A stretch of DNA of 64,000 bases from Acidobacteriota bacterium. GTDB lineage: Bacteria; Acidobacteriota; UBA6911; RPQK01; JAJDTT01. The stretch covers positions 4,384,001-4,448,000 of the forward strand of contig CBDCJH010000002.1 in NCBI GenBank assembly GCA_965217775.1, given 5' to 3'. This document shows, one piece after another, positions 1 to 50,022 of the stretch. Under the pieces are notes generated by a model. That model did not search any database. It worked only from the letters and a program-made list of their open reading frames with translations, and was not told the DNA's origin. The position numbers were made by a program, and so were the translations under genes. The stretch's first letter is position 1. Every line of letters starts with the position of its first letter.

Positions 1-179
1 AGGGGGGTGTAGCGGGGACTGGAAATCCCCCCTCCTGTTCCGGCCCCTGGCCACCGAATAGAGAATTTAACTGTCCCCTATTTGTTCTGTTCCCCATTTC
101 TTGACACTGGAACGCTTCGTGGCGAAGCTTCAACGCGCGGAGTAAAAAAGGTGACTGTCCTCTTCTCCTCCCTTGCCAA

Positions 180-638
180 TCACAGAATGGTGTTCAAGTC
201 GTCAAGAAGTACAATCCGGTCATCCAGCTCCTGGACTTGTTCGGCAAGACGTTTGGCTCTTGAAATCAGATCTTGTGCTGCCTTCCTGTCTCCTTGCAGC
301 GCCTTCGCGCGTGCGCTCGCCTTGTAGCCATAGCCGACAAAGTAGGGAGGCAGATCGTTGGTCTCACCGACCTCGACACATCGCTGGGCGAAATATTCCG
401 CGCGCTCCGGGAGTCCCGCCACGGCGTAGACGCGAGCCAGTTGCCAGCTCCCAATTGAGATGTTCAACGGTGTGTGATCCTCAACCTGATTCCAAGGCCA
501 GAAGGAAGCATGGGAGACGTGAATCATCTCTTCAGCTTCCTTGGCGGTGAGCTCCGGTTTACGCAGATACTCCCACGTCTGGTTGAAGCAGGAAGCGGCC
601 AATCTGCGGTGAGTCAGATTGTCTGATTGATTGTTCAT
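180..638 (-). CDS. Conserved hypothetical helical protein
   Basis: ATG at 638 with GGAG RBS (MNNQSD...HRRLAASCFNQTWEYL). Bracketed by palindromes at 147 and 663. Confidence 0.7.
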   Translation of the reverse strand: MNNQSDNLTHRRLAASCFNQTWEYLRKPELTAKEAEEMIHVSHASFWPWNQVEDHTPLNISIGSWQLARVYAVAGLPERAEYFAQRCVEVGETNDLPPYFVGYGYKASARAKALQGDRKAAQDLISRAKRLAEQVQELDDRIVLLDDLNTIL

Positions 639-812
639 GTCGTCTCCAATGCATGGGTGCAAGAACGTGTCTGTCCCCCTTCTCCTGCAGTGAAGATCGT
701 GAATCTGACGCCACGACATTTGCTGGGTGAAACAATCATGCATCGTTGGATCTTTCCCACGTTCATTATCTCGGTCCGGTCACGGCAGCCAGGGGTGGCA
801 GGTCGCGCTTGA

Positions 813-861
813 GAATAAGCCGGAATAAACCGGAATAAGCCGGAATAAGCCGGAATAAGCC
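813..861. repeat. Tandem 10-bp repeat (GGAATAAGCC) x5
   Basis: gaataagccggaataaaccggaataagccggaataagccggaataagcc. Confidence 0.9.
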
Positions 862-872
862 AACCCACAGTT

Positions 873-1709
873 TTACAAGCGATTCCAGCGCGCTCCCCGA
901 CCATGGCCCGTAGGTGTGATCAAACCTCGAGCCTTTAGAGTGGCGAGGTCTTCACGCAGTCGCCGCTTGTTGATTTGCGGTCCCAACTCGGCGAGGATCT
1001 CGCGCAGTGCCATGGCGCGATCCGCCTGATCGATTAGCGCAAGGATCTCCCGTTGCCGCTCGGTCAAAAGGGTCACCTTGACACGATCCGTTTGCGAGAG
1101 GGAAGCGGACCGTCACGCACCCTCCAGCGTTCTCGATCTCGGGAAGTGGCAGACCGGCAGAGGTCGTCAGCTCCGCCATCTTGAGAGTCCCGCGTCCCCA
1201 CTCCTCAATGATGCCTCACCGATAGAACGTACGGGCGATCAGTGGGTTCCACGGCAAGGATTCGTGCGGTGCGAACAGCTTTTCCGGGGTCAACCCGAAA
1301 TGCAAGGTGCCGGACGACGTCACCTCCAGGCGGTCATCAAGGCCAAGGTGGTGTTCCCAACCCGACGATACGCTATGCCTCGGTAAACGTACGGCCTTGC
1401 AGACCCGCGGCTTACGCGCACCACGACCACCTCACGGTCCCCCGCTATGGGAACCCGCTCGATCTCTGGAAAGGACGGCGGATCGATCCTTTGGATCTCG
1501 CCGCTCACGCCCTCAATCGTCCGGTCGCTCACTTGCTGTCCAGCCATGTCTCCATTGGGTGTGACACCGAACAGCACATACCCACCGCGTTGGTTGAGCA
1601 TGGCGCATACGGTTCGGGCTGCCTCACGGCGCTCTCCCGTCGTGCTCTTGAACTCCAGAGTCTGTGACTCGTGGGTGGAGACCAGCGCCGCAAGTCGCTC
1701 AGACGTCAT
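873..1709 (-). pseudogene. AlbA_2/Schlafen-like ATP-binding transcriptional regulator (with HATPase_c_4 and wHTH), fragmented
   Basis: N-terminal ESQTLEFKS...AMLNQRGGYVLFGV. Further pieces in other frames (GLPLPEIEN; HTH ending GHGRGARW). Confidence 0.7.
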
Positions 1710-2150
1710 CGGGCTTCCTCGACCACACGCATGGGATTATGGCGTATATCCACAAAATGGCTCTCATCTGCAACCATTCGTTCAGTGCGTCGAAGACCTT
1801 TTTGGAAGTGATCGAGTTCCTGCTCATTCCCTGATACGCACGTGAGTTTCATATACCCAAGTCTGCACCGACGATGTGTCAGCCGGGTAAATCCGTCTCG
1901 GGGCGCTCGAAGGCGCCAACTCCGAGCACAGGAAGCAGCGACAGCATTTCGGCCAGATAGCCGTCCATCACAGCTCGATCCGGGTCCGCCAACATGGGGC
2001 GTTGCGGATTTCTGAATCACCAATGGACGCGGATCGGTCATGTCCCCCGCCAAGGATGCGCGCCGGAAGATCCTCCGCCATCCGGTCAACCGCGACGATT
2101 CCTACCAGGAGCACTGCAGCACTCAAGAGATCCCGACTCGGCTTCCCACC

Positions 2151-2339
2151 CTATGACAAATTATTTTCCTTGCGTCGGCTCGCCAAACGCCGCAGAACCG
2201 GGTCCGTATATCGGTGCGCATGAAGCCAGTGATCAAGCTCGTCATGGGTCTTCCCCACGATCTCCGCGCTGACGCGATCCCGAATCTCCCGCATGGTCTT
2301 TACGCCATCGAATCCCCTCTTTTTCATTTTCTCAATCAT
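2151..2339 (-). CDS. Small putative antitoxin following a PIN-toxin C-terminal remnant
   Basis: FDGVKTMREIRDRVS. The overlapping upstream remnant reads ...VEIRTPREI, a typical PIN toxin C-terminus. Confidence 0.45.
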   Translation of the reverse strand: MIEKMKKRGFDGVKTMREIRDRVSAEIVGKTHDELDHWLHAHRYTDPVLRRLASRRKENNLS

Positions 2340-2451
2340 CGCATATCTCCCTCGGCGTCCGGATCTCGACTCCTGCCACCGTGGCAACGGCGATATGCAG
2401 GCCGTCGGCCAACCCTCGTGAGCTGAGCGTAAGCAAAGCGAGAATTGCGGT

Positions 2452-3688: not shown

Positions 3689-3794
3689 CGTACGGCCTCC
3701 GCTAGTTCGTCGAATTCCATAGTGTCAGGCAAAGCGAGAATGTGACTATCACCTTTTCCTGCTCCGTCCCCTTCTCCTGCCCTCTCGCCTGGCT

Positions 3795-5991: not shown

Positions 5992-6243
5992 TTCGTTTGG
6001 CCGCCGGGAGTACATCGAACCGGATCGTGCTCGCCAGCGTCTTCTCCCTATATGACCCGCGAACCGCAATTTTGTGAACCCACAAAATCCTTCTGGACCG
6101 CAAAGCATGGTTTGTCGGAGAGAGATGAACGTGACTGCCCCCTATTCCTGGGCGCGGATGGACCTACTTGGAGCACCCGGCGTGGAGGCGCGCGACAAGT
6201 AGTAGGGATTACAGACTGGGCACTGATAGGTTACACTTTACAA

Positions 6244-6522
6244 GTGATTGTCCGCTTCCGGCACAAGGGTCTCCAGCTTCTCTTCGAGAAAGGGGATCGA
6301 CAGCGGGTGGCGCCAGCGTACGTTGCCAAGGTGGAGCGTATCTTGGCACGTCTGGACGAGGCGACGGCTCCCACCGGCATGGATCTGCCGGGATTCCGGC
6401 TGCATCCTCTGAAAGGCGATCTTGCCGGTTATTGGGCGGTTACCGTGTCCGGCAACTGGCGCATCGTCTTTCGCTTCGCGGGCACGGATGCCACTGACGT
6501 GGACTTGATCGATTACCACTGA
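6244..6522 (+). CDS. higB: HigB/RelE-family toxin
   Basis: [11 protein letters not shown]...[26 protein letters not shown]...DYH. Confidence 0.9.
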
Positions 6523-6536
6523 AGGAGAACCATGAC

Positions 6537-6827
6537 ATGCCGATGAAAAAACCACCCCACCCCGGTTTTTCCGTCCGTCACGATTGCCTGGAACCTTTAG
6601 GACTGAGCGTGACGGAAGCTGCAAGGAAGCTCGGGGTCAGCCGCAAGCAGATGTCCGATGTGGTCAATGGCCATTCGGGGATCTCACCGGAGATGGCGAT
6701 CCGCCTTGACAAAGCCTTCGGTGGAGGCGCGAACACGTGGTACCGATTGCAGGCGGCCTACGACTTGGCGCAGGCGATGAAGAAAGCCGATCAGATCAAA
6801 GTGGAGCGGCTGTCGACGGTCGCATAG
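6537..6827 (+). CDS. higA: HigA-family antitoxin
   Basis: PPHPG...[16 protein letters not shown]...ISPEMAIRL. Confidence 0.9.
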
Positions 6828-6925
6828 CCCGCATTCCTCACCGGGGGACGCGATAATCGCACAGGATTTGTCCCCTCAGGAACGAATAGAGAAGGTAATT
6901 GTCCCCTTTTCCCGCGCACAAATAG

Positions 6926-6988: not shown

Positions 6989-7293
6989 TGGCGACCAATG
7001 GGATCAAAGTGAACATGACCCCTTCCCATCCGGGCGACTTCATCCGTACGGGCGTCATCGAGGAGTTGGGTCTGACCGTGATGAAGGTGGCCCAGATCCT
7101 GGGAGTTCGCCGGGCAACGCTTTCGGATCTGCTGAACGGCAAGGCTGCGCTGTCGCCGGAGATGGCCTTACGCATCGAAAAGGCTTTTGGCGTGAGCATG
7201 GATATGCTGCTGCGGATGCAGGCCTGGTACGACGCCTCGCAGATGCGGGCCCGTGCAAGTGAGATCACCGTCCAGCGATACGTGCCCGCCTGA
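6988..7293 (+). CDS. higA: HigA-family antitoxin (orphan)
   Basis: PSHPGDFIR...LSPEMALRIEKAFG. Confidence 0.88.
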   Translation: MATNGIKVNMTPSHPGDFIRTGVIEELGLTVMKVAQILGVRRATLSDLLNGKAALSPEMALRIEKAFGVSMDMLLRMQAWYDASQMRARASEITVQRYVPA

Positions 7294-7357
7294 ACGACAA
7301 CCATTTTCCGGCGCAAACGGTGATCCAGAAGGGGGACTGTCCCCTTCTTTTCCCTTT

Positions 7358-7618
7358 GACGCCTGGGCGGACACTACGACGCCTTCTATCCGCATCTACA
7401 AGGGACACGCACAGGAGGCTGAAGAGCATGATGCCGAACTCCACACCTCCGGCATCCTCAAAATCTACATTCAGGACTTCCTGAGGTAACTCATGACGTC
7501 ACGGACGGAGGGAGCGGATTTGCAGGAGCGCATGGCCGCCCTGAACTGGATTGGCCAGCTCTTCTTTGGCAAGCTCTGGGACATCTACGCCAAGCATTTC
7601 ATCGAGTACGGACCCTGA
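7358..7618 (+). pseudogene. C-terminal remnant of a larger enzyme (patatin/GMC-oxidoreductase-associated domain)
   Basis: DAWADTTT...GILKIYIQDFL*...GQLFFGKLWDIY. Starts right after the palindrome at 7328 and has an internal stop. Confidence 0.45.
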
Positions 7619-9762: not shown

Positions 9763-10006
9763 CCAAAGCGAGAGATTCTACAGCCAAGAGCATCGTGAAA
9801 CAGGTCTATTTATCTGATTTGAACGCGCACGCACGAAGTTGACTGTCCCCTTTTCGCACCCACAGTCGCTGTGAATTACGTGGCCGCCCGGAGTCGGGAC
9901 ACCATGCTGGGAGAGCTTCCTCGGATCGAAGAAGAGCGATCGAGAAGGTGACTGTCCCCTACTCTTCCCGCAGGAAGGACAAGTACAAAGACGTGGAGAT
10001 ATAACC

Positions 10007-10618
10007 ATGATAGTCGTTACAAGAGAGACCATCGCCGGAAAACGCATCCGAAAGACGTTGGGGCTCGTGCGCGGCAACACCGTGCGCGCCCGTCACGTGG
10101 GCAAGGACATCCTGGCGTTATTGAGGAATCTGGTGGGCGGTGAGGTTCATGAGTACGGGAAGCTACTGCCCGAAAGCCGAGAGCAGGCCCTCGATCGCAT
10201 GGTCAGCGAGGCTGACGCGCTCGGGGCCAACGCCGTCGTGGCCACGCGCTTCACGACCTCAATGATGATGGGCGGCGCCGCCGAACTACTGGCGGTGGGT
10301 ACCGCTGTGGTGATCGAAAACGAAGATTGGAGGGAAGCAGAGCGACCCGCGCGCCGTTTGCTTCGCTCGATGACGGCGCCCACAATCGCAACTGAAAACG
10401 TAAACGTGACTGTCCCCTTTTCGCGGTCTCCTTGTATTGGCGAACGGTTTGCCTCGACGGAGATGGCGCTCACGGTCGCGCCGATGATGCAGCAGCTTTC
10501 GGTGGAACTGACACCAGGTCAGGGCAAACCGAAGTTGCGGGTTTTGGTGTCGCTGCGCCCAAAAGACGGGCTGCACGTCGTCTGGAAGAGTAGGGCAGCG
10601 TGCTTCGCACCGTCCTAG
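10007..10618 (+). CDS. YbjQ (UPF0145) protein read through in frame into a cytochrome P450 C-terminal fragment
   Basis: aa 1-104 are typical YbjQ. After the palindrome at 10402 the frame reads PF..SPCIGERFASTEM...LRPKDGL, resembling the P450 heme-Cys region. Confidence 0.7.
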   Translation: MIVVTRETIAGKRIRKTLGLVRGNTVRARHVGKDILALLRNLVGGEVHEYGKLLPESREQALDRMVSEADALGANAVVATRFTTSMMMGGAAELLAVGTAVVIENEDWREAERPARRLLRSMTAPTIATENVNVTVPFSRSPCIGERFASTEMALTVAPMMQQLSVELTPGQGKPKLRVLVSLRPKDGLHVVWKSRAACFAPS

Positions 10619-11212: not shown

Positions 11213-11312
11213 ATAGGCCGCCAAGCAGCAAAAAGGAGATCTACATAATCAGGGCGGCGATTAGCCAAGGCAGGGAGTAAAGAAGGTAACTGTCCCCTTC
11301 TCTTCCGCACGC

Positions 11313-12233
11313 CAGGCAATCAGCTCGTGCACGACGTTGCCGTAAATGTCGGTCAGGCGGAAGTCGCGGCTATTGTGGCGGAAGGTGAGCCGCGTGTGAT
11401 CCAGGCCCAGGAGGTGGAGGATGGTGACGTGGAGATCGTGACGCGAGACGCGGTCCTTGATGGCGTGCATGCCGAGTTCGTCGGTCGCGCCGCGCGTGAT
11501 CCCCGGCTTGACGCCGCCGCCCGCCATCCACATTGAGAAACCGTAGTGGTGATGGCCGCGACCGAGGGATTCCTCCTTGCGCGCCTCCTCAAACGGCGTG
11601 CGACCGAACTCAGTGGCCCAGACGACGAGGGTCTCGTCCAGCAGACCGCGTGACTTCAGGTCCATGATGAGGGCCGTGATGCCCTGATCGGTGCGCGCCG
11701 CATTCGTGCGGTGGTTCTTGATGAGCCCGCTGCGGTTGCCGTGGGCGTCCCATTGCCGCCCGTGGGCGCCGTCGAGAATCTCCACGAAACGGACGCCGCT
11801 CTCCACCAGCCGTCTCGCCAGCAGGCACTTTCTCCCGAAGTCGGTGTCGCCGTAAAGCGCCTTCACCGAGTCCGGCTCGTTGCGGATATCGAAGAACTCC
11901 GGCGCTTCCATCTGCATTCAAAACGCCGTCTCGAATGCAGCGAAGCGCGCGTCGAACTCGGGCTGTGTACGATGCATGTCGCGATGGAGGCGATTCAACT
12001 TTCGCACCAGATCCAACTGCCGGCGACGCTGCTCTGGGCTCAGAAACGCCGGTGCCTTGATATGCGGCACCGGTGGATTCCCGGGCTTGACGTCCGCCAG
12101 CGTGGCCTGATGGTAACCAGGGAGGAATCCGGCATCATGAAGCGCGTGCCCGCCGTCCGGCCGTCCGACCGTCCATCATCACCACGAATCCCGGCATGTT
12201 CCGGTTCTCCGTCCCCAGCCCGTAGTCACCCAC
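11313..12233 (-). pseudogene. DUF1501 protein, 5'-truncated and disrupted
   Basis: Closely similar to the C-terminal part of 19810-21282 and 23295-24776. Homology ends at the inverted palindrome at 12234. Confidence 0.85.
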
Positions 12234-12271
12234 GAGAAGGGGACAGTCACGTTCTCGCACAGGAATTGTCT

Positions 12272-12991
12272 CTACCGGGCTGAATGGATCCCACTTCCGG
12301 TTCCTTGACGATAGGTCCGCGCAAAATTGTGGTCCGAGAGCCATTTCCGAAATGAAGAATTGTCGCTGTACTGCTTGAAGAGCTCGGTGTGGTCGGAAAG
12401 CAGGTCGATCACGGCTCGTTCGAGAGCCTTGTCGTGCTCGATCCGGGCATTCTGCCTGTCAGAGTTCTTCATCGCGTTCTGATAAGCCTTGTCGTCGGCG
12501 ACCTTTTTCGGCAACTCCTCGGCGATGACCTTGCCGATCTTGTCCTCGTCCTTCCACTCGATGTCACCGAACAGATCGTTGAAGATCTTAAGGATGGAGC
12601 TTAGGTAGTCGACCTCCGGCTCCGGTTTTCCTCCGCCGCCGTTTGTGGGCACGGGTCCGATCTCACCGTCCTCGTCGGGCACGACGATCGACCGTTTTGC
12701 CCGCACTTCGGCTCGATAACTGTCCATGTCGATGTTCTCGAGAATCCCCTTGGACAGATCTTGTTCCTCCGGCGCCGGCAGCTTGGGGGTCAAGAAGGTC
12801 AGAAAGATGGACAGCCGCTCCCACTCCGCATTCGTGTACGGCAGGATCAGGGAGAGGAACCCATAAGCCCGTGTGAACGCCTTCGCCTTGCCCTTGAAAT
12901 CTACTTGGCCGTCCTCGTCGAGGTCGGATCTGTAATTCACGACACATCTATCCAGGATCGGATCGAGCTTGTTTCGGTCTGCTCCCGTCAC
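12272..12991 (-). pseudogene. hsdR: Type I restriction enzyme R subunit, C-terminal fragment
   Basis: FKGKAKAFTRAYGFL...NIDMDSYR...NARIEHDKAL...SFRKWL. The 5' part is removed at the IS1380 end. Confidence 0.8.
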
Positions 12992-12997
12992 GTAAAG

Positions 12998-14981
12998 CCC
13001 AGATTATTCATGGGACATGTTGATAAGGGCTTCCGACCCGGCGTTTTCGTGCGGTCGGAGCCCGGTTTCTCTTGAAGCTCTGTCGATTCGACTGAATCGG
13101 CTCGAAAACAGGACGATTGAACCAGTCATAAACCGTTTACCGGCCAGAGGGACCGTCACCCGCCGACAGGTTGACTTTCCGGTGAGAAATTCCCACCGTT
13201 TCGGTCCCTTCCACGGGCCCGATTCCTCCTCCGTCCCCTATCCCGGCGCCCAGGACACCCGCGCCAGTCTCTGCCACAACCGCTTCCAGTCCGTCGCCCC
13301 TTGACTGATGACGAAAATCAATCGCCTCCACTGACGCAGCGCCCGAGATGCCACTCGCAACACCCGCTCGCGAAAACGACGCAGACTCCAGCCCCGACGC
13401 GTCGCCTGCTCCATCAGCACCCGACCCAGGTGCAGGATCTCGTACCCCAGCAGATTCAGCAGGAACAAGACTTCGTTGTGGGGGCGAACCCCGGCCTCCG
13501 TCGTCGCTTCCGGCTTGGCTCCCGGCTTCAGCGGTTTGTCCCGATAGTGCGTCTTGGGCCGGCTCGCGGAGGACAAGGCCGGATCGAGCACGTCCATCAA
13601 CTCCCCCATGTGGCCTTCCGCCTTCCCCCGTTTGCGGTACTGCGCCAGCAACTCCCGAGCCTCGTATCGTTTCCGGCTCAGGCTCGTCAGCAACCAGAAA
13701 TGATCCGGATACAACTCCCCCGGTCGCTCCCGCACCACCAGCACCACCCGGCGCGCCCGATCCCAGCTCTCCGCCTGGTAGGTCAACTCATGGAACCAGA
13801 GCCTCGGCGGTGCATCCGGGGATCGCCCCGCCGGTTGAGTCAAGTCGGGCTTCGCCATCCGGTTCAGGACCTCATTCTTGCGGATTCGAGCGATATAGGG
13901 CACGCCTCTCGACTCCAGCCCCTGCAGCAGCCCCGGCTCCGGGAACCCCGCATCCATCCGCACGATCATCGAGCCGCACAGACGCCCCCGACAGTGGTCC
14001 ACCACCCGGAGCGTCAACTTCAGCGCCTTTTTCCCCAGGTAGCTGGCTCCCGGAAAAATCTCCCCGTCGATCAGGTCCCCCGTTTCGGCACAACTTGCCA
14101 CCAACCCGTGGTACATCCGCTGGCGATAGTATCCGTTCCATTCGCTTCCCGGGGGGTGTCCATGGACCTCCACCGGGAGACCGTCCACGTCCAGGACCAT
14201 CGTCTTTTTCCGTGAGGTCTTTTTCCCCCGTTTTCGCCGCCGGCCTTCGATCATCTCGATCCGACGGCACGCCAGCTCCGTCACCGCCTGGTGCAGGACC
14301 GGCAGGTTCTCCTCCCGGCTGAGCGTGTCCAGCAGTCGGGAAAAGGTCGGCTGTGACGCCAGCCCGTGGCCCTCCTCCAAGGCCGCCGTGCCCCGACGGG
14401 TCTGGCTCGCCACCCGCAAGCTCGGATCCTGACGCAGGCGGTCGGCGTCGGACTGGTCGCGCCAGCCCTGCCCCAACAGCAGGAGTCGAGTCCGCAGCAG
14501 ATCCGCCAGCGGATAGCGGATCGAACTCGGGTGTCGCGGATCGTGCAACCGCTCGGTCAACCAATCGATGAGGCCGCTGCGATCCATCATCTCCCGCTGC
14601 ACCAGGGCTCCCGTATCCGCACTGAGCAACTCGGGGCGGGTCTCGAGGCGGAGGGATCGGTTGAATGAGGGCCGGATCTGCGGTATCGTTTCAGGCATGG
14701 CGTGCTCCGTTTATTGTGGTTGTTTATTAGCACCATAATCATACCACAAATGACGGGCACGCCACCTCTTTCTGCCGCCCTTGGAAGGGACGCAAGCCGT
14801 GGAAATGCTTGGGTTTCGGCCCCACTTGAATCCTGGGGTTAAACCGACGTTGAAAACAAATATAGCGTTTCACCCAGGTCGGGTCCCAGCCGCTTTCTGT
14901 GGGTATCCGGTAACCCTCTGATCCGACTCGACCTGACGGGCACGCTTGCTCATTTTATGTTTGCGTGGTGAATAATCTGGG
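12998..14981 (-). mobile_element. IS1380-family insertion sequence
   Basis: Terminal IRs CCCAGATTATTCA (12998-13010) and TGAATAATCTGGG (14969-14981) around a transposase. No target duplication seen. Confidence 0.85.
13238..14698 (-). CDS. IS1380-family DDE transposase
   Basis: LASQPTFSR, LDVDG, RMDAGF and YRKRGKAE motifs. Confidence 0.9.
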   Translation of the reverse strand: MPETIPQIRPSFNRSLRLETRPELLSADTGALVQREMMDRSGLIDWLTERLHDPRHPSSIRYPLADLLRTRLLLLGQGWRDQSDADRLRQDPSLRVASQTRRGTAALEEGHGLASQPTFSRLLDTLSREENLPVLHQAVTELACRRIEMIEGRRRKRGKKTSRKKTMVLDVDGLPVEVHGHPPGSEWNGYYRQRMYHGLVASCAETGDLIDGEIFPGASYLGKKALKLTLRVVDHCRGRLCGSMIVRMDAGFPEPGLLQGLESRGVPYIARIRKNEVLNRMAKPDLTQPAGRSPDAPPRLWFHELTYQAESWDRARRVVLVVRERPGELYPDHFWLLTSLSRKRYEARELLAQYRKRGKAEGHMGELMDVLDPALSSASRPKTHYRDKPLKPGAKPEATTEAGVRPHNEVLFLLNLLGYEILHLGRVLMEQATRRGWSLRRFRERVLRVASRALRQWRRLIFVISQGATDWKRLWQRLARVSWAPG

Positions 14982-14989
14982 CTCAGGAA

Positions 14990-15056
14990 ATCAGCCGTGT
15001 ATGACATTTCCGTGGACATCGGACAGGCGGAATTCGCGGCTTTGGTGGCGGAAGGG
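14990..15056 (-). pseudogene. Extreme 3' remnant of another DUF1501 gene
   Basis: Minus strand reads FRHQSREFRLSDVHGNVIHG and ends at the palindrome at 15062. Confidence 0.65.
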
Positions 15057-15195
15057 AGCAAAAAAGCGTGACTGTCCTCTTCTCCCGCTCAGACAGTTCC
15101 GCTGGCGATGATGGGAGCCCACGTCTTGTGCACAGATTGGGTGGCAACCAAAACGGATCATTTCCACGGGTATCGATCAACGGATGCAACCACGG

Positions 15196-21282: not shown

Positions 21283-21376
21283 GGGTGAACCCGCTCAGGC
21301 TCGTGAGGGTGTAACGGTATTGTACAGGAGAGGGGAGGTGGCTGTCCCACTCTCAGTCCCCTTCTCACACGGAAGA

Positions 21377-29135: not shown

Positions 29136-29144
29136 TAAGCCTAC

Positions 29145-34520: not shown

Positions 34521-34605
34521 GCGACTACCTTACGCTTGTAATCGGAATTCTACGTTGGGTTGTAGAAGCAAATCCACCAGGCGAACGGACGCGCGCCCTG
34601 GAACC

Positions 34606-35478
34606 TCAGTACGTCCCGATCCCCAGCACATCCTTCTCCCAGGGCGTCAGTCGTTTGATCTGTTCGGGAGAAAGGGCGCGAACCTCCGTGTACTCGGGGA
34701 TGGTCTCCTCGAGGCCGAGCAGCTTCCGCATTTCCGGGAGGAGGCGATCCTGCACACCCTGTGGAATGACGCGGGCGTTGTCGATCATCCCCTTGACCCA
34801 CCATCGCTGGAAAAAGGCCAGTAAGGAATGCCGGACGTGGTCGCTGCGGTTGATGCCGCTGGCGTGCCAAAGCGCCGCATCCCAAACGATGGCCGTACCC
34901 GCGGGAACGACCGCTTGGTGGGATCCCGGGGAGTCGGCATCCGGGTCGGGGATCTCACAGGACTTGTGAGTGCCGGGCCAAACCAGGGTAGCTCCGTTCT
35001 CGGCGGTGAAATCCACAACCGCCCAGGCGACGTTGATCGCCATCGGGTAGTGCTTGCCGCCCTCGAAAGGCACGATGCTGAATGGAGACCGGTCGGCGTG
35101 AATCTGAAACCCGCGCCCGGGTTCCCTGCCCTCGCTGGGTCGAATCGAACGCGCCGTTGCGTCGTATAGAACCATGTCTTCGCCCAGGTACTCACGGCAC
35201 ACGGAGAGAACCGGCGGGTTCAGGTAGAAGGTTTCGAAGCAAGGATGCTTGCCCACGATGCAGTGGGCGGACCAGCAGTGCTCGGACGAAGTTCCCAGGC
35301 GCAGAGCGATCTCGCTCTCCCGCTGGTAGACGTCTTCGGCCGCCTCAATGGCTGGAGCCAGATACTCGGCGTCGAGAGCGTCCGGGATGATGGTGTAACC
35401 CTGATCCCCAAGCTCTCCAACGTGGAAATCCAGTTCCGAAGGCGTCAGCTCTCTTCCGCTCGCGAAGCCGGTCTTCAT
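34606..35478 (-). CDS. PhyH-family dioxygenase, second copy
   Basis: Same length (290 aa) and nearly the same sequence as 27053-27925. Confidence 0.9.
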   Translation of the reverse strand: MKTGFASGRELTPSELDFHVGELGDQGYTIIPDALDAEYLAPAIEAAEDVYQRESEIALRLGTSSEHCWSAHCIVGKHPCFETFYLNPPVLSVCREYLGEDMVLYDATARSIRPSEGREPGRGFQIHADRSPFSIVPFEGGKHYPMAINVAWAVVDFTAENGATLVWPGTHKSCEIPDPDADSPGSHQAVVPAGTAIVWDAALWHASGINRSDHVRHSLLAFFQRWWVKGMIDNARVIPQGVQDRLLPEMRKLLGLEETIPEYTEVRALSPEQIKRLTPWEKDVLGIGTY

Positions 35479-35728
35479 GAGTCATGCCCCAAATATCGTT
35501 GCCGAAATTGCCATTGCTTGGCAGCCTTTACAATTGTCAACCAGCGTACTACACGATTTCTTTCGCGAAAACACTCAAAGGAGGTGACTGCCCCCTTCCC
35601 GGTTCGCGCCCCTGTGGAGATGGTGCCTGCTCCCTCGCGCGCGCGCGCCCGCACACAAAAAATCAGGGACAGTCAACTTCTCGCTTGACCACTTGACAAC
35701 TTCCGCGTCGTGGATTCACATTATACAC

Positions 35729-36720: not shown

Positions 36721-36877
36721 ACCACCCCTGTTTCTCCCAGGATCTCGCCGGCGGGTGGCCGGTGGGGGAGCTTTCCTCTTTCTTCGTTTTCTTAGAAGGT
36801 GACTGTCCCCTCTCGAGCGGGTGACCCACCAGATCCGCGCTCATGTCCGGTGACGTCCGCCAGCACGGTCGGCCTTT

Positions 36878-38238: not shown

Positions 38239-38240
38239 GT

Positions 38241-38426
38241 CATGAGACCGTGGGAGCCTGGCAGGTGAGGTCCAAGCGGCTCCGCGACTGTTGTCGTGCG
38301 CCGTCTGCGTGACTTTGCATGTGGTCTCATCCCCCGTTCAGCATACTGGAACTCCGCGCCGATTCTTATAATTTATGGCTTGGTCGTAGTGTTCTCAACG
38401 GGAGAGACGGTGGCTGTCCCCTTCTC
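38241..38426. repeat. ~185-bp diverged direct repeat (second copy ~39440-39628)
   Basis: Shared ctgttgtcgtgcgccgtctgcgtgactttgcatgtggtctc...gttctcaacg, each copy ending in the palindrome. Confidence 0.85.
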
Positions 38427-38519
38427 GCTTGGATGATTGTGACGGCAAGAGTCGCATGACCGAACGACGCTCCACTCGCAATACACAGAATGCTGGTCAA
38501 CTGGCTAGTCCCCTTACCC

Positions 38520-39227
38520 TTAGGCAGCCTCCCTGGTTCCCACGATCAACAGAGTCCGTATAGGCAACAGGAAGTCTTCCCCCTTCCTCCTGATGTTCAA
38601 GGCCTCCAGGAATGATCCCGGGGCCTTCTGCAGACGAGCTCGGATCTCCGCTTCCGCCTCAGATCCAGAGGATCCGATCTCGCACCACCGGCGTACAGTC
38701 GTCCCCTGAGGTCGCTCCGATAGTCCATCCTTCAACGCTTCCACCTTCAGCCCGCTGCTCTCGAATATGGATCTCCACCTCGCGGCCGTGTAGCTCCGAA
38801 CGTGGGTTGGATCGTGAAGCAGCTCCAGCTTGTGGTTGAACTCGTCTATGTCAGCGTTTTCGTGTCCTTCGAGATCGATAATCGCTACCCGCCCGCCGAT
38901 CTTCGTGAGCCGAGCCATTTCCGCCACCGCGCGGTCCACATCATCGAAATGGTGGGGGGCCAGCCGCGATACGACCAAATCGAACTGGTGTCCCCGCAGG
39001 GGAATCGATTCCGCGTACGCCTCGACCGTCTCCACCTCTCTCCCCTGCTCCGCTGCCAATCGCCGAAACGCGTCCAACATGCTGGGTGCAGGGTCGACTC
39101 CTACGAGTCTCCCGGCACCAGGGGCAAAGGACAGCGCCAAGTGGCCGGCGCCACACGCGACATCACATACGGATGCCCCAGCCGCTAGATTCAAGAGCTG
39201 ATGAAGAAGCCTGATCGTTGGGCTCAT
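38520..39227 (-). CDS. Class I SAM-dependent methyltransferase
   Basis: DVACGAG, FDLVVSRLAPHHF, HDPTHVR. The native start may be frameshifted near 39300. Confidence 0.85.
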   Translation of the reverse strand: MSPTIRLLHQLLNLAAGASVCDVACGAGHLALSFAPGAGRLVGVDPAPSMLDAFRRLAAEQGREVETVEAYAESIPLRGHQFDLVVSRLAPHHFDDVDRAVAEMARLTKIGGRVAIIDLEGHENADIDEFNHKLELLHDPTHVRSYTAARWRSIFESSGLKVEALKDGLSERPQGTTVRRWCEIGSSGSEAEAEIRARLQKAPGSFLEALNIRRKGEDFLLPIRTLLIVGTREAA

Positions 39228-39690
39228 GGAGTGAACTTCGCTCGTGGCATAGTTCTCAGCAATTCTCTCGAAGCGGTCACGCGATTCGTCAGTCGATTCT
39301 CACCCTCCTTCTGGAACCTCCGATCTCGACCTGGCGGTCCATCAGGGCTGAGGCCACTCGTCTTGAGAAGACTCCTATGTTCTCTCAAGTGACGGTGACT
39401 GTCCCCTTCTAGATTTCCGTCCCCTTCTAGATTTCCCGTCATGAGATCCTGGGAGTCCGGCAAGTGATGTCCAAGCGGCATCGCGCCTGTTGTCGTGCGC
39501 CGTCTGCGTGACTTTGCATGTGGTCTCGTCTCCCGTTCAGCATACTGGAACTCGCGCTGATTCTTGTAATCTATGGCTTAGTGATCGTGTGTTCTCAACG
39601 CGAGAGAGACGGTGACTGTCCCGTTCCCGATTCCGATTCCAAATTGACTCGCAATCTCGAAGGGTGTAGGGCTATTCATTAACTTCAGAT

Positions 39691-40674
39691 ATGAAAAACA
39701 TCATTTTTCTGCTGATTTCTGCATTGACTATATTTTTGGCTCGGACGGCCTGGAGTGAGGGGGCCGGGTTCGGGAAGCCTGACCGGGAAGGTATCGGGCG
39801 CTTCCTCCTGGTCGCGTCGGAAGGGCTCTACATCGTCGAATCCGATGGCCACTGTTCCTGGTCGTACACCGTCCCTCCGCTCGACGGACAATCCCCCGGA
39901 GAGTTCGACGACCTGATTTATGACGGCTGGGCACTCGCTAACGGAAACGTTCTCTTTGGGACGCATCGCTATGTACGAGAGATAGACCGCCAAAAGCAGC
40001 CGGTGTGGGAGTACCGTGTCCAAGGAAAGAACAAGGTCAAAACCTGCCTGCCCCTACCGAACGGTCGTGTGGCGGTACTCAATAGCCAGGAGCAGGCCAT
40101 TCTCGAATTGGAATCGGGGACCGGACAGGTCCTGCACAGGATCCCCGTTCCCGCTGGCGGAACACTCCATACCCGCTACAACCTCCTTCGCCGAACGCCG
40201 GAGGGAAACTACCTGGTTGCGCTACGTGCCGAGGAGAGATTCGTGGAAGTGGATTCCACCGGTCAGATCCTCCGCTCCCTGCGTGTCCCGAGTCTGCCCG
40301 CCCTGGCCCAGACGCTGAGCGACGGCACGACGCTATGCAGCGGCCGCTTCGGCCTGATCCGGTTTGATGCGAATGGAAAGAAAGTGTGGAGCTTCAGCCC
40401 TGAGAATGCTGCTCCCCACTTCCCACTGTTGATCGCAGTCGGGACGGTGGAGCTTTCCGACGGACGATTGCTGGTCGTGAACTCCGACTGGCACTACCGG
40501 GAACCGGGCGAAAATCGCGTGCAGCTCTTCATCACGGATTCCTCGAAGAACATTTCGTGGACGCTTCCGGTGACCGCCTTCGAAGGCTGGAAGCGGGGAG
40601 AGATCGAGCCCGAGACGGGTCTGCTGGAACATCGAGGCGGAGTGGTTCAACTGCTGGGCCCTGAGATTCCGTAA
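39691..40674 (+). CDS. Secreted beta-propeller repeat protein
   Basis: Signal peptide and repeated LxNGN/DG...G..VW motifs. Confidence 0.7.
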   Translation: MKNIIFLLISALTIFLARTAWSEGAGFGKPDREGIGRFLLVASEGLYIVESDGHCSWSYTVPPLDGQSPGEFDDLIYDGWALANGNVLFGTHRYVREIDRQKQPVWEYRVQGKNKVKTCLPLPNGRVAVLNSQEQAILELESGTGQVLHRIPVPAGGTLHTRYNLLRRTPEGNYLVALRAEERFVEVDSTGQILRSLRVPSLPALAQTLSDGTTLCSGRFGLIRFDANGKKVWSFSPENAAPHFPLLIAVGTVELSDGRLLVVNSDWHYREPGENRVQLFITDSSKNISWTLPVTAFEGWKRGEIEPETGLLEHRGGVVQLLGPEIP

Positions 40675-40786
40675 TCGTAATTGCGGGTCTTCGTACTGTG
40701 GAACGGACCGCGGGAGAAGATGACTGTTCCCTTTTCGACTTTCTGCGAATTGTTCCAGTTGTTCCCTGATAAACTGACTAAGTTTT

Positions 40787-41754: not shown

Positions 41755-41810
41755 TAGCGAATCTCCTTCCAATGGAACGGACCTCGCGAAAACGTGACTG
41801 TCCCCTTTTC

Positions 41811-42057
41811 GATCGTTCGTGCGGGAATCGTGGAGCTGTCCGGCGGCCGATTGCTGGTCGTGAACTCCGACTGGCACTACCAAGAACCGGGCGAGAATCG
41901 TGTGCAGCTCTTCATCACGGATGCCTCGAAGAACATTTCGTGGACTCTTCCGGTGACCGCCTTCGACGGCTGGAAGCGGGGAGAGATCGAGCCCAAGACG
42001 GGGCTGCTGGAACATCGAGCCGGAGTGGTCCAGTTGCTGGACCCAGACATTCCCTGA
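41811..42057 (+). pseudogene. 3' duplicate fragment of 39691-40674
   Basis: VELSGGRLLVVNSDWHY...LLEHR, bracketed by palindromes at 41787 and 42097. Confidence 0.85.
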
Positions 42058-42180
42058 CCGTATTCACGGGGCTTAGTACACTGGAACGGACCTCGCGAGA
42101 ACGTGACTGCCCCCTTTTCGACTGCCCGGACGAAAGGGCCTGTGGCTTGTGATTTCTGGTTGAAGTTTCAGATCACAGCT

Positions 42181-43302
42181 TTACCGCGGCTGCAGTTCCA
42201 CGCGCCAGAGTTCGAGACACTCACCCGACTGGTAGAGAATCACGTTGGGCTCGACTTCGAATATCGTGGGATACGCCATTCTCGGAGCATAGTCGGCAAC
42301 CGTGGTGGCGAGCCAGCCCTTTCCGGTTCCATCGGCATTGATTGCCAGTTGGCATTTCCTTCTCTGATCTTCGTGTCTCCAGTCCGACTTTTTCTCCCTG
42401 CTGCGCTGAACCAACTGGCCATAGGCTAACGCCAATCGCCCGTCCCTCAGTCTCAGCAGATAGGGGTCCACCCCGGGGCCCAGGACCATGTCGGCGGGTG
42501 GGCTCCAGGTTCTTCCGCCGTCGCCGCTCCAGCTCGCCACCATGGGCGAGTAGTGTCCGGTCCGCATTACGGCCAACATCCGGCCATCGTCCAGCGGAAG
42601 CAACGCCCACTCGTTGAATCCTTCCGAATCAACCATCACCCCGGCCTGCGGGGCGGCTACGGTGGAATAGTATCGCCAGGTGTCTCCCTGATCGTCGGAG
42701 CTCACCAGGAAAGACCTCATCTTGAAGGGGGTCTCCATCTTGCTGCGAGGGTCGGTTGTCGGCAGATTGTCTTCCTCGAAGCTGCCAATCATGCAAGCCA
42801 GCAGGGTCCCATCGAGCATCTCTCGAATGCCCCGATGGAAAAAGATGGTCGAGCTGTTCTGGTCCCGGACTTCGGAGAAGTTATCGATGGGAACGGATCC
42901 CGCCTCCGGAATGATGAGGACGGTTTCTTTCTTCTCAACGGTCTTGAACCCGTCGCGGGAACGCCACATTCTCCCCACGCAGCGGCCCGCCTCGCGGCAG
43001 GTCACGTTCCAATAGAAGCCGACGAACAGTCCCTTTCTCCAGTAGAGGGAGGTCAGCTTCTCGGCGAACAGGTAAGAACCAAACGGCGGATCGGACTCAT
43101 CCACCGGCCAAAAATACCTGCCCCCATCGTTACTCTTGAGCGCCCCATAGACATAGATGGTTCCATCCGGAGCCTCGACCGCCCTGGGATGACGGCATCT
43201 TGCTGCCGTCACCTGAACGTCCAACTCTGCCGCCGCCTGAGTCATGGCCGAGGCCATGGTGACGAATGCCAACAAATGGAATCCTCTATGAACATGCATC
43301 AC
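42181..43302 (-). CDS. Secreted sialidase-family (BNR/Asp-box) protein
   Basis: Asp boxes SNDGGRYF, SRDGFKT, SDDQGDTW and SGDGGRTW. Confidence 0.8.
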   Translation of the reverse strand: MMHVHRGFHLLAFVTMASAMTQAAAELDVQVTAARCRHPRAVEAPDGTIYVYGALKSNDGGRYFWPVDESDPPFGSYLFAEKLTSLYWRKGLFVGFYWNVTCREAGRCVGRMWRSRDGFKTVEKKETVLIIPEAGSVPIDNFSEVRDQNSSTIFFHRGIREMLDGTLLACMIGSFEEDNLPTTDPRSKMETPFKMRSFLVSSDDQGDTWRYYSTVAAPQAGVMVDSEGFNEWALLPLDDGRMLAVMRTGHYSPMVASWSGDGGRTWSPPADMVLGPGVDPYLLRLRDGRLALAYGQLVQRSREKKSDWRHEDQRRKCQLAINADGTGKGWLATTVADYAPRMAYPTIFEVEPNVILYQSGECLELWRVELQPR

Positions 43303-43413
43303 TTCAATTACCTCCTAACCGGGAAAAACTGGAAAAACACTCCTTCGCCGGAGCGGCGGTTTTTCAGTCGCCGACTTTCCTTCTGGCTCCGTCGTGCTCC
43401 GGTTTGGACCGAA

Positions 43414-43440
43414 GAGGGCACCCACAAGGGGTGCCCCTAC
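43414..43440 (-). repeat. GTAG-type REP palindrome
   Basis: Reverse complement is GTAGGGGCACCCCTTGTGGGTGCCCTC. Sister copy at 55542-55568, related copy near 61192-61227. Confidence 0.75.
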
Positions 43441-43638
43441 CGACTGTTCTCTATCAATGTGCACAAGAATTCGAGATTAACCCGGATTATCCATAAGCGC
43501 CCGGGGGGCGAGAGAAGGTGGCTGTCCTCTTCTCATCAGAACGATTGCCAGTCACCTGCCGGTCATGCTCGAAAAGCCCGTTGGAGTTCAGTATTTTGGC
43601 ATTCGTCAGCGGCTCAGTCATTTTTGCGGGAGGTTAGG

Positions 43639-43839: not shown

Positions 43840-44047
43840 CCATGGACTAAGCCTGAATGAGCTTGCGCGGGTGAGAACGAGGGCGGGTGAAAACGTGAGT
43901 GTCCCCTTCCAGGCCGTCTTCCCGTCGCTCACTGCATCGCTTGGCGTACTTGCGTTCCCGTCGTGATGCGGCACATCGGCTGTGGAACGACCTGCCTCTC
44001 CAGCAGTGCAGGCGGCCATAATCTCCGGAACTGCCACTGCGGCGCGA

Positions 44048-48271: not shown

Positions 48272-48475
48272 TCGGCAGCATGCCGGAGCTCGGAATCGGC
48301 ACCGTAGCGCAAATACACCTGGGGGTCGCCATGCCGAATCTCGATTTCGACAGCGACACGTGCGGGCTCGCTCTACCACCAGAGTGAGGTGATCGCCGCT
48401 CTGCTGCACATTGAGAAGAAAAACCGACTGTCCCCTACTCCGGCAGTCCAGCCGCCCGCACCGCGTTGGCGAGCT

Positions 48476-48583
48476 ATCCCTGACCGCGGAATCTTCAGGG
48501 GCAAGGACCGATCAGACGTCGAAGAGTATCTCAACAGCCTTGGCCAAAATGGCTGGGAAATTGTCAACGTTGACTTCCGGTGA
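48476..48583 (+). pseudogene. DUF4177 fragment
   Basis: GIFRGKDRSDVEEYLNSLGQNGWEIVNVDFR, a paralogue of 43639-43839. Confidence 0.7.
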
Positions 48584-48613
48584 TCGATCACAGACGGATG
48601 GATCGCGGCTGAC

Positions 48614-48877
48614 CTAGGCTTCGACCTTCTCGGACAACCAGACTTTCATCAGCGACTGGTAGGGAACATCTCGTTTATGGGCCGCGATCTTGATCTGTTC
48701 AAGTAGAGCGACCGGCAACCTGAGGGAAATTGTCTGCGTAGACGGTTTGAGATTAGCCAAACGAATACGTTCAGCCTGGCTCCAATCGACATAGCCGCTG
48801 GAGTCGTGACTCTCCCAGAAGGCCCGCTCCTGCGCTTCGTTTTTGAACGCGGGAATGGGCCTACGTTTCTTTTTCAT
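48614..48877 (-). CDS. brnA: BrnA/CopG-family antitoxin
   Basis: IPAFKNEAQERAFWESHD...ISLRLP...VPYQSL. Confidence 0.85.
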   Translation of the reverse strand: MKKKRRPIPAFKNEAQERAFWESHDSSGYVDWSQAERIRLANLKPSTQTISLRLPVALLEQIKIAAHKRDVPYQSLMKVWLSEKVEA

Positions 48878-49163
48878 AACGGGATCGCTCCTTGCTATGC
48901 ATGCCCCGTGCGGAGATCACGCGGATCTTGGTGCTTTCCCCGCGGAGTGTGAACGTTACATGTAGTTGGCGCCCCGAGTTGGTGACGCCGAGCGCATGAA
49001 ACCGAGGCTCGAGTCGGCTGTGCTTGACATCCTCGACAACTAGAAGCGGTTCGTTGAAAAATACTTGCTCCGCTTCGGCTTGGCTGACACTGTGCTTGTC
49101 GAAGCTTTTCCGTGCGTTGCCCTCGTCCCACTGAAAGCCAACAACCCGTGTGAAGTCAGCCAC
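48861..49163 (-). CDS. brnT: BrnT-family toxin
   Basis: FQWDEGNARKS..KH...IRVISAR. Confidence 0.85.
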   Translation of the reverse strand: MADFTRVVGFQWDEGNARKSFDKHSVSQAEAEQVFFNEPLLVVEDVKHSRLEPRFHALGVTNSGRQLHVTFTLRGESTKIRVISARGMHSKERSRYEKET

Positions 49164-49189
49164 GCTTTGTATATTACCAAAATATACAC

Positions 49190-49745
49190 ACACGCGGCGC
49201 ACGGTGAGCGCCTTGTAGTAGCCGCGGAACTGGCAGTGGTGGGTTCTGGCGGCGGCGTGGGCGCATTCGATGAGGACTTCACGCAGGGTGAGGTTGCCCC
49301 GGCGGGTGCGGCCGTGACGGCGTTTGCCGGCGCTCTGGTTGTTACCCGGACACAGGCCGGCCCAGGCGGCACAATGGCGACGGGAAGCGAACACGCCGAT
49401 GTCGGGGTCGAGTTCGACGAGGATAGCGCTGGCACGGTCGATTCCGGGGATGGTCATCCGCAGATGGATCCGGTCGCGGAACTCAGCAAGTCCGTCCGCG
49501 AGACGCCGGTCGTAGTGGGCGAGGCGCGCGTTGGCGTCGTGGAACGCCCGTAATTGGTCGCGCAGGAGGAAGCGACCGTTCGCATCCAAGTCCGTGGACA
49601 GGGCGTCGCACAGGGATTCCAGATGGCCGCGGACATGGTGCGAGAGGGACGCGAGCAGGTCCACCTTGGATTTGCCTGCGAGCAGACCGTCGAGTAGGCG
49701 CAGGCCGTTGACACCGAACAGGTCCGAAGTGAAGCGGAAGCGGCG
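49190..49745 (-). mobile_element. IS110-family transposase remnant
   Basis: TIPGID...AAWAGLCPGNNQSAGK...LIECAHAAAR. Truncated. Confidence 0.75.
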
Positions 49746-50022
49746 ACCTTCGGACAGCTGCTACCCATCCCGGGGGGATGCCGTACGTTTTGCTGTGCGT
49801 CCACGGTCGAAACGGGAACAAGGCGGGGCGCAGGGACGGTCGAATGCCGTGATGACTTTTGCCACGGGCTGTTAAAGCGTCCACTTGGCCGCTTCCGATA
49901 TTCCCCCAACCGGCAACCAGGAGCAACCGTGGCGCCCGGACGCGCTCCTCGTCATTTACATGTTGGACGGGGAGTGCGTGCCGCGCCGATCATGCGCGTT
50001 TTAGACATCTTTGGAGGAAGAA

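Follow-up and report, generated by a model that had tools for sequence, protein, structure and literature searches.

The window analysed here is a stretch of 64,000 nucleotides (nt) from an Acidobacteriota bacterium (assembly GCA_965217775.1, contig CBDCJH010000002.1, positions 4,384,001 to 4,448,000). It contains a transfer-messenger RNA (tmRNA) gene and, on the side of the 3' end of that gene, an array of copies of a short DNA motif set among accessory genes, toxin-antitoxin pairs and gene fragments. A reading of the letters alone (the original prediction) had described this array as about 30 co-oriented copies of a 21-bp palindrome next to the tmRNA 3' end and had taken the motif for the recombination or cleavage site of an undescribed gene-capture system with a trans-acting enzyme. 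An alignment of 106 non-redundant genome copies defined a conserved element of 25 nt, gAGAGAAGGTGACTGTCCCCTTCTC, with no conservation outside these positions. A position weight matrix (PWM) was made from the 106 copies and used with a cut-off score of at least 12 in the window and at least 14 in the genome. The PWM scan yielded 30 copies between positions 59 and 48440 of the window, spaced by 84 to 6270 bp; 28 of them lie on the plus strand, and the two on the minus strand (12234 and 35660) are those that had been named as reversed. No copy was detected in the housekeeping part of the window (48441-64000), as had been proposed. The 21-mer of the original prediction had 21 matches in the window at up to three mismatches and none in 100 dinucleotide-preserving shuffles. 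A recurrent site is present, but the 21-bp palindrome requires revision: the conserved element spans 25 nt, and its layout of approximately 11-1-11 is an imperfect inverted repeat with a poorly conserved left arm.

The motif had been thought to be restricted to this one array. The whole genome (designated G000; 6.43 Mb in two contigs, C1 with 144 kb and the large contig C2) contains 217 copies at 52 loci, and the large contig, when simulated with a third-order Markov model, yielded no copy at the same cut-off. The copies inside the clusters are strongly co-oriented, so that the clustering and strand bias expected from a genome-wide PWM scan were both found. The largest cluster is that of the window, with 29 copies across 50.7 kb; clusters also occur on C1. 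This contig shares long segments of 90-97% identity with C2:5.16-5.29 Mb, including motif clusters and the neighbourhoods of tRNA-Phe, tRNA-Asp and tRNA-Leu; the genome has a contamination score of 7.47%, and C1 may be an island-sharing plasmid or a contig of a second strain. By a crude codon-usage gene caller, which misses atypical island genes and makes intergenic counts approximate, 183 of the 217 copies lie outside predicted genes. Neighbouring genes are oriented at random with respect to the motif (63, 53, 35 and 32 across the four arrangements), which argues against a promoter or terminator role, and we rejected such a function as the main role. Attachment repeats derived from the tmRNA gene were likewise rejected, as most of the 52 loci lie away from tRNA or tmRNA genes.

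In the window, the motif marks boundaries of modules and of cut genes, as had been claimed (Table 1). The list of cut genes was confirmed in part. Those upheld are a DUF1501 gene at 12234, a P450 piece at 10398-10422, a PSCyt1/DUF1549 gene at 33734 and the 309-bp piece at 41811-42119. The proposed cuts at 6926 (higB), 7358 (patatin-like), 15056 (DUF1501) and 22502 (XRE) were not confirmed; the open reading frame (ORF) at the supposed patatin remnant, 7253-7489, has no Pfam match, and the helix-turn-helix (HTH) domain of the XRE protein is complete. The DUF1501 fragment is 86-88% identical to two full genes (19810-21282 and 23295-24776), and its similarity to them ends where the reversed motif at 12234 has its 3' edge; the C-terminal DUF1501 piece at 11261-11917 corresponds to Pfam positions 198-390 of 390. 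The ORF at 10007-10618 opens with a YbjQ domain, and a C-terminal piece of P450 (positions 410-455 of 462) follows directly after the motif at 10398-10422. Another duplicated segment has its source at 26181-28048, which comprises the 5' part of a PSCyt/DUF1549/DUF1553 gene (24766-26967) and a PhyH gene; in the truncated copy the PSCyt1/DUF1549 gene is cut and encodes 357 amino acids (aa), compared to 733 aa in the full copy. The 309-bp unit is an 88% copy of 40447-40740, which comprises the end of the gene at 39691-40674 together with its motif; the copied sequence runs over 41830-42123.

Table 1. Motif copies, motif-bounded units and neighbouring features of the window. Scores are those of the PWM.
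Feature	Position	Strand	Score or basis
Motif copy, weak	59-83	+	19.9
Motif copy	143-167	+	37.4
Motif copy, weak	659-683	+	13.5
Motif copy	3734-3758	+	20.2
Motif copy	6123-6147	+	19.5
Motif copy after HigB/HTH pair 6244-6827	6887-6911	+	34.2
Motif copy	7325-7349	+	16.1
Motif copy	9831-9855	+	30.1
Motif copy	9940-9964	+	34.5
Motif copy inside ORF 10007-10618	10398-10422	+	30.5
Motif copy below stop of DUF1501 fragment	11278-11302	+	40.3
DUF1501 3' fragment; two flanking motifs with 3' edges inward	11303-12233	-	homology
Motif copy, reversed	12234-12258	-	40.7
Insertion sequence with DDE_Tnp_1_4 transposase (13238-14698), outside the motif system	12985-14991	-	about 15 genome copies, 91-97% identity
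Motif copy	15060-15084	+	29.2
Motif copy, weak	21330-21354	+	17.1
Motif copy	22147-22171	+	20.6
Motif copy	22500-22524	+	38.1
Source copy of duplicated segment, ending in motif 28024-28048	26181-28048	+	homology
Motif copy; truncated duplicate begins 3-9 nt later	33707-33731	+	32.9
Motif-bounded unit ending in motif 35576-35600	33734-35600	+	copy of 26181-28046, 95.4%
Motif copy, reversed, weak	35660-35684	-	15.5
Motif copy, weak	36791-36815	+	12.3
Motif copy	38402-38426	+	35.3
Methyltransferase unit closed by motif 39387-39411; gene 38520-39227 on - strand	38427-39411	+	
Motif copy	39604-39628	+	28.9
Motif copy closing unit with gene 39691-40674	40712-40736	+	32.0
Motif copy	41786-41810	+	37.5
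309-bp unit, from 3' edge of motif 41786-41810 to motif 42095-42119	41811-42119	+	
Motif copy; homology to G007 begins here	43510-43534	+	35.8
Motif copy	43887-43911	+	21.1
Last motif copy before tmRNA gene	48416-48440	+	20.5
BrnA (CopG) and BrnT toxin-antitoxin pair	48614-49664	-	
tmRNA gene, 3' end toward the array	50023-50378	-	

Junctions of this kind have a polarity throughout the genome. Homology within the genome crosses the motif in just 9 of 217 flanks, all belonging to the large C1/C2 duplicates. Truncated copies begin 0-9 nt past the 3' edge of the motif, and their source continues leftward without a motif; C2:1822150-1822725, for example, is a 97.5% copy of the internal part of a gene 10 kb away. 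In 22 of 52 cases the homolog of the left flank has a motif, against 7 of 48 for the right flank. Between orthologous junctions, identity is 83% over the 60 nt 5' of the motif and 68% over the first 60 nt 3' of it (15 non-independent pairs in which both neighbouring units are shared; Wilcoxon p = 0.005). This asymmetry between the 5' and 3' flanks indicates that DNA 5' of the motif tends to move along with it and that new joints form on its 3' side. Upstream of the breakpoints in two sources of truncated copies (26150-26180 and 40400-40446), the bases loosely resemble the right half of the motif (GCGTCCTCTCG and CTCCCCACTTCCC); these may be look-alike sites or an alignment artefact.

The array beside the tmRNA gene was compared between species of the genus. 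Relatives referred to by handle in this study are G002, G003, G006, G007, G011, G017, G023 and G313. Synteny at the tmRNA locus extends to all eight other members of the genus. All seven tmRNA flanks that were retrieved carry motif arrays, and all 77 copies in them share the orientation of the window relative to the tmRNA gene. For a unit map, the flanks were cut at the motifs and the pieces clustered. Read outward from the tmRNA gene, the order of units is. 15 3 6 14. 2. 5 1 13 in the window, 15 3.. 2 5 1 13 in G007,. 8 7 3 6. 2 5 1 4 16. 9 in G002 and.. 6 2 1 4 12 9. 11 in G006. Shared units keep their order across species, and whole units are present or absent; the methyltransferase unit, for example, occurs in G002, G003 and G007 and is absent from G006. 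Endpoints of homology between genomes coincide with the motif: 140 of 340 distinct endpoints lie within 30 nt of a copy, compared to 13.7 +/- 3.5 expected under random placement. The anticipated coincidence of insertion and deletion breakpoints with the motif is therefore present at the level of species within the genus.

Clustering of the predicted proteins from all motif clusters led to a candidate enzyme. A family of 313-aa proteins has 12 of 12 members inside motif clusters, which hold 11% of the predicted proteins. The 12 gene copies lie at 11 loci of the genome and none in the window, and the enzyme would therefore act in trans. The protein carries an HUH (histidine-hydrophobic-histidine) motif, GNHFHFVVH, and a tyrosine helix, LYVELNAVRAGLV, and matches the Pfam profile Y1_Tnp (single-tyrosine, Y1, transposases) at 30.4 bits, above the cut-off of 23. 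Of 349 database homologs, 120 were listed, and the source name of six of these is 'REP element-mobilizing transposase RayT', REP denoting repetitive extragenic palindromic sequences; transposases of this type are known as REP-associated tyrosine transposases (RAYT). Invariant in 22 aligned homologs are N64, H65, H67, Y164, E166, L167 and N168, and a C-terminal domain of about 120 aa is conserved in the same alignment. The AlphaFold model (predicted local distance difference test, pLDDT, 80.8) had as its top Foldseek match in the PDB the E. coli TnpA-REP protein bound to a REP hairpin (4er8_A, E 1.4e-5), followed by the IS200, IS608 and ISDra2 transposases. A comparison with solved structures by sequence only gave no significant match (4er8 at E 0.38).

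The genes of this RAYT-like family are themselves flanked by the motif. At all 11 loci, a motif variant, GAAAAAYAGACTGTCCCCTTYT, lies 127-302 nt upstream in opposite orientation. Downstream, a copy with a score of at least 12 occurs in the same orientation at five of the 11 loci (at 173-294 nt) and in the opposite orientation at two. Of the four loci without a downstream copy, three (2626206, 5113907 and 5250580) show the core GACTGTCCCT at the end of the element, and 1808106 has a weaker form. In ten aligned loci, conservation extends from about 250 nt upstream to about 200 nt downstream of the gene and ends in motif variants. The RAYT-like gene together with its flanks thus behaves as a multi-copy element.

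The distribution of enzyme and site was determined in 41 relatives and in 401 sampled genomes from the phylum. Among the relatives, an 18-mer of the motif is multi-copy in all eight genomes of the same genus and in G023, which belongs to another family and has a genome of 3.4 Mb; the other 31 have 0-1 copies. Orthologs of the enzyme with 73-95% identity occur in exactly the nine genomes with a multi-copy 18-mer. Relatives of G000 have 3-11 gene copies, compared to 12 in G000 itself. The specific 313-aa protein discriminates between the genomes, and the generic Y1_Tnp profile, which matches 36 of 41 relatives, does not. In the phylum sample, several copies of an exact 16-mer occur only in G023 and in the six members of the genus included (G000 among them); G313 has a single copy. 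G023 has two ortholog copies of the enzyme at 80% identity, each beside motif arrays, and the gene appears to have been transferred to this other family. Its dense non-coding motif arrays (G023:C1:1459000-1460800 and 1487600-1489900, spacing 26-230 bp) consist of tandem units with a length of about 335 bp or about 200 bp, unlike the gene-bearing arrays of the genus of the window. In the sister genus (six genomes), homologs are only 44-54% identical. The homolog of its member G011 is flanked by inverted copies of another variant, ACAGTCTGTCCCYTTCT, of which 31-48 copies were found in all three sister genomes tested and none in G017. The site variant thus changes along with the enzyme clade, which is a signature of REP/RAYT systems as far as these are described in the accessible text of PMC6006769 and PMC2817692.

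Taken together, the occurrence of the site on both sides of the enzyme genes and the co-variation of the two across genomes indicate that the motif is very probably the cognate REP-like site of this RAYT-like HUH/Y1 transposase family. The trans-acting enzyme that had been postulated thus has a candidate, flanked by the site at 11 of 11 loci. Repeats tied to RAYT transposases are already established, according to the available portions of PMC2817692, PMC3116915, PMC6006769 and PMC8266576, and the system is not of an undescribed kind, as had been proposed; it is a REP/RAYT system of unusual form. As a whole, we favour with moderate confidence an explanation in which a RAYT-like enzyme acts in trans on its cognate site and motif-bounded units are joined, lost and copied. 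Its parts differ in strength. That the enzyme makes the junctions itself, units being excised, inserted and copied at the site in an integron-like manner via HUH chemistry, is suggested by footprints in the DNA and is put forward tentatively. In its strongest form, in which a RAYT-like HUH transposase would run a cassette system analogous to integrons, moving, deleting and copying units of a segment plus site and capturing pieces of resident genes, the proposal is rather doubtful. Integron-like cassette shuffling is regarded as plausible but unproven.

In the proposed mechanism, the enzyme would bind the conserved right half of the motif, GACTGTCCCCTTCTC, on one strand and nick that strand just 3' of the right half. 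HUH chemistry would leave a 5'-phosphotyrosine link and a free 3'-OH, and the DNA after one site could then be joined to, lost from or copied beside another site. The working unit would be a segment that has the site as its right end. If two neighbouring sites were cleaved, a unit would be removed or moved as a whole; if one true site and a look-alike within a gene were cleaved, left-truncated copies would result. Co-orientation would arise if only head-to-tail sites gave viable products of excision and insertion. The array would then resemble an integron cassette array in function and be served by another class of enzyme.

Several observations weigh against this account. With respect to the enzyme, the match to the NCBIfam family NF047646 (REP_Tyr_transpos, 'REP-associated tyrosine transposase') reached 47.6 bits and lies under the cut-off of 80. 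The variants flanking the RAYT-like genes (GAAAAAYAGACTGTCCCC... and AATCGAGACTGTCCCT...) have a left arm unlike that of the array type, and the kinship among genus members means that the co-occurrence of enzyme and site rests on few independent events. With respect to the motif, single-strand DNA folds are weak (-1.7 to -4.2 kcal/mol, z-scores +0.21 to -1.29), and no covariation was found between the symmetric positions 0 and 18 (p = 0.29). GC skew places the origin at about 5.0 Mb and the terminus at about 1.68 Mb; relative to replication, motif orientation is not clean (125 versus 74 copies, 11 versus 6 clusters). With respect to the junctions, the left-flank homolog, too, is without the motif in 30 of 52 cases, and the ends of one internal gene fragment are arbitrary on either side; a unit of 'segment plus right-hand site' is therefore an incomplete account; junction offsets range over 0-29 nt with no single cleavage position. 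With respect to the units, 19 of 136 inter-motif units have a full second copy inside G000, of which seven are RAYT elements and four are C1/C2 copies. Beyond these, only 8 of 136 units (four pairs) are fully duplicated; the methyltransferase unit belongs to one of the pairs, with a 91% copy between two motifs at C2:411328-412399, adjoining a RAYT-like gene. The loss of units, finally, needs no dedicated enzyme, since ordinary recombination between direct repeats of 25 bp can account for it.

Some of these results also narrow the mode of recognition. The left arm of the motif in G023 is a different one, CTAAATGA, and in view of this, of the weak folds and of the missing covariation, a hairpin or palindrome as the essential feature is not supported. 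The weak hairpin and the poorly conserved left arm make it more likely that the enzyme reads the right half of the motif as sequence than that it reads a hairpin. Among the enzymes that had been suggested, a RAYT-like HUH/Y1 transposase is the one retained, but without the hairpin recognition attributed to it. The GTAG tetranucleotide at the 5' side was not found in the consensus of the 106-copy alignment. An IS608-like rule tied to the replication strand has no clear support in the orientation counts given above.

The main rival is passive decoration by REP sequences together with ordinary recombination and decay. Here the enzyme spreads only the short repeat, which settles harmlessly in decaying accessory islands; units are lost by recombination between direct repeats, and cut genes result from island decay beside them. 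REP/RAYT systems that spread a short repeat are established (PMC3116915 and PMC8266576, in the text accessible), and the REP family of one genome clusters as sizeable blocks at a small number of loci according to the available text of PMC3733652. The scarcity of second full-length copies, the largely conserved unit order between species, which fits vertical descent with deletions, and the dense non-coding arrays of G023 are all in line with it. Insertion of a repeat should, however, leave the two halves of a gene adjacent, and the sequences before and after the motif are unrelated. Right-flank homologs elsewhere lack the motif in 41 of 48 cases, an internal gene fragment lies between two motifs, and the 3' flank is hypervariable at orthologous junctions. 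Nor does passive decoration account for the co-orientation of the copies (28 of 30 in the window, 77 of 77 among relatives) despite the random orientation of flanking genes. We therefore consider it unlikely, though it is the alternative that survives best.

Much less probable is a cassette system of the tyrosine-recombinase type (an integron, an Xer/dif-type system or an integrase of a tmRNA island) that uses the motif as its core site, the RAYT-like genes being insertion sequences that target this site. Co-oriented arrays at a fixed locus, unit-wise presence and absence, the 11-1-11 imperfect inverted repeat and the several tyrosine recombinases in the genome would fit such a system, and REP sites are known targets of insertion sequences (PMC8450116 and PMC12288879, in their accessible parts). 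In a genome search, the best match to the integron integrase profile TIGR02249 scored 80.6 bits against a cut-off of 265, with no match near the array, and an integron was rejected for this reason. No integrase was found beside the tmRNA gene, where the neighbours are the BrnT/BrnA pair and a fragment of an IS110-family transposase. A 25-nt site without extended conservation, whose left arm is replaced in G023, is not what this rival predicts; the motif at the ends of the RAYT elements belongs to the conserved element and has its own variants, and enzyme and site variants co-vary between genera. Least likely of all, and hardly probable, is that the motif is a locally selected protein-binding or RNA signal (operator, terminator, insulator or nucleoid-protein site): its mostly intergenic position and proposed roles of REPs in mRNA stability and termination (PMC3733652 and bioRxiv 10.64898/2026.03.23.713779, as far as accessible) would suit such a signal, but it is randomly oriented relative to flanking genes, folds weakly without a T-run or covariation, shows a strict asymmetry and co-orientation unexpected for a dimer operator, and lies at homology breakpoints and, within ORFs, at gene-fragment junctions.

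Apart from the motif system, the window contains further repeats and modules. The Pfam families encoded include Planctomycete cytochrome C, DUF1549, DUF1553 and DUF1501. Several full or partial copies of the insertion sequence with the DDE_Tnp_1_4 transposase lie in or near motif clusters, and one (C2:1873460-1873642) begins about 13 nt after a motif. A DUF6791-ThiF protein is encoded beside a Multiubiquitin-domain protein at 15642-17067, a ubiquitin-like conjugation pair of a type found in defence islands. A 711-bp segment is duplicated at 21361-22071 and 22567-23277 (99.3% identity, 1206 bp apart); related copies with 85-93% identity occur at more than ten other loci, and its ORF at 21494-21973 has no Pfam match. 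The block at 28122-32756 has a low GC content (51-52% compared to 62% in the genome) and codes for an AIR-synthase-related protein, a DNA methylase, an HD-domain protein and two proteins without Pfam match; it looks like a defence or restriction-type module. A sequence of about 130-170 bp at 43312-43480, ending 30 nt before the motif at 43510, has more than 50 genome copies (71-88% identity). It lies just upstream of a BNR-repeat gene (42181-43302) and may be a conserved gene 5' region or a small repeat. The BrnT ORF also bears a Transposase_20 fragment of the IS110 family. Between two housekeeping genes, at 51191-51307, lies a dispersed repeat of about 117 bp that is unrelated to the motif and possibly a miniature inverted-repeat transposable element; dozens of copies (79-96% identity) occur in every genome of the genus.

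RAYT transposases and REP repeats are widespread, and there is still debate over their effect on the genome. The case described here links a RAYT-type system to genome architecture: accessory genes, toxin-antitoxin pairs and gene fragments form co-oriented units, which come and go as wholes at a locus that is conserved in the genus. If the enzyme makes the junctions, cassette arrays would not be exclusive to integron integrases, and HUH nucleases would be engines of gene capture. This would represent a second, mechanistically independent invention of cassette-array storage and a host-level role for the RAYT family, and a short strand-specific site with a small enzyme could serve the engineering of single-strand DNA. 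If the enzyme only spreads the repeat, REP-like repeats would still structure islands and mark breakpoints, which would be useful for genome annotation.

Among known systems, site-specific ones share single features with the array. Integron attC sites are 57-141 nt long, carry R''/L'' and L'/R' boxes and are recombined as a folded bottom strand; the Xer/dif site has 28 bp with two 11-bp arms around a 6-bp centre. The array is like an integron, or like a cluster of attC sites lacking integron-integrases (CALIN), in that short sites are co-oriented with one at each module end, that it is anchored at one locus, that the arrays of relatives differ by whole modules, and that its content is rich in toxin-antitoxin pairs and orphan genes. 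It differs in its 25-nt site, which by its conserved length is not a longer folded attC with R and L boxes, no scan for attC sites by structure alone having been made, in the random orientation of genes within units, in the many units that are gene fragments, in the many arrays per genome, and in the candidate enzyme, an HUH nuclease and not a tyrosine recombinase. Unlike dif, the motif is built as 11-1-11 with only the right half conserved, and unlike that of CRISPR repeats, its spacing is far from constant. The earlier statement that the site is none of these three is supported.

Transposons with HUH enzymes come closer. With the IS200/IS605 group (IS608, ISDra2), the system shares the Y1 HUH fold, strand-specific sites with cleavage expected beside the recognised element, and a multi-copy element formed by the RAYT-like gene and its flanks of about 250 and 200 nt. 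It differs in that no distinct left-end and right-end hairpins were identified and that no clean bias toward replication orientation exists. IS91/ISCR (insertion sequence common region) elements and Helitrons capture flanking DNA in a one-ended manner. The copied segments described here, with a variable left end and a fixed right end, are reminiscent of this, but no Y2 (two-tyrosine) or Rep-helicase protein was found here and the arrays are without transposase.

The closest relatives are the REP/RAYT systems. The enzyme is of the HUH/Y1 type with a predicted fold closest to E. coli TnpA-REP, its gene is flanked by inverted short-repeat copies (also in G023 and G011), the repeat is multi-copy and mostly extragenic, and each enzyme clade has its own repeat variant. 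In the RAYT groups associated with REPINs (hairpin-forming REP doublets), the enzyme gene is typically single-copy and vertically inherited (PMC5581495, accessible text); here, there are 12 gene copies and an 80% identical copy in another family. The enzyme also has its conserved C-terminal domain of about 120 aa and falls below the NCBIfam cut-off. REP repeats carry a GTAG/GTGG tag (PMC3733652 and PMC8266576, in part), whereas the repeat here has neither this tag nor a convincing hairpin, and its copies are co-oriented singlets in islands, at gene-fragment junctions and boundaries of unit indels, in contrast to dispersed inverted doublets. A text search of the literature for the motif strings found no bacterial paper with this motif. 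In the literature searched on integrons, HUH enzymes, REPs and REP islands of Planctomycetes, as far as its text was accessible, no description of REP-bounded cassette arrays was found, nor one of multi-copy, island-clustered, co-oriented singlet sites at gene-fragment junctions in a tmRNA-anchored, genus-wide array. The text of PMC6006769 makes no mention of 'cassette', 'genomic island' or 'same orientation', its supplementary files lying outside the search. The system described here therefore belongs to the known REP/RAYT kind, and what appears new in it against that literature is the arrays of co-oriented motifs at fragment junctions, anchored at the tmRNA gene throughout the genus.

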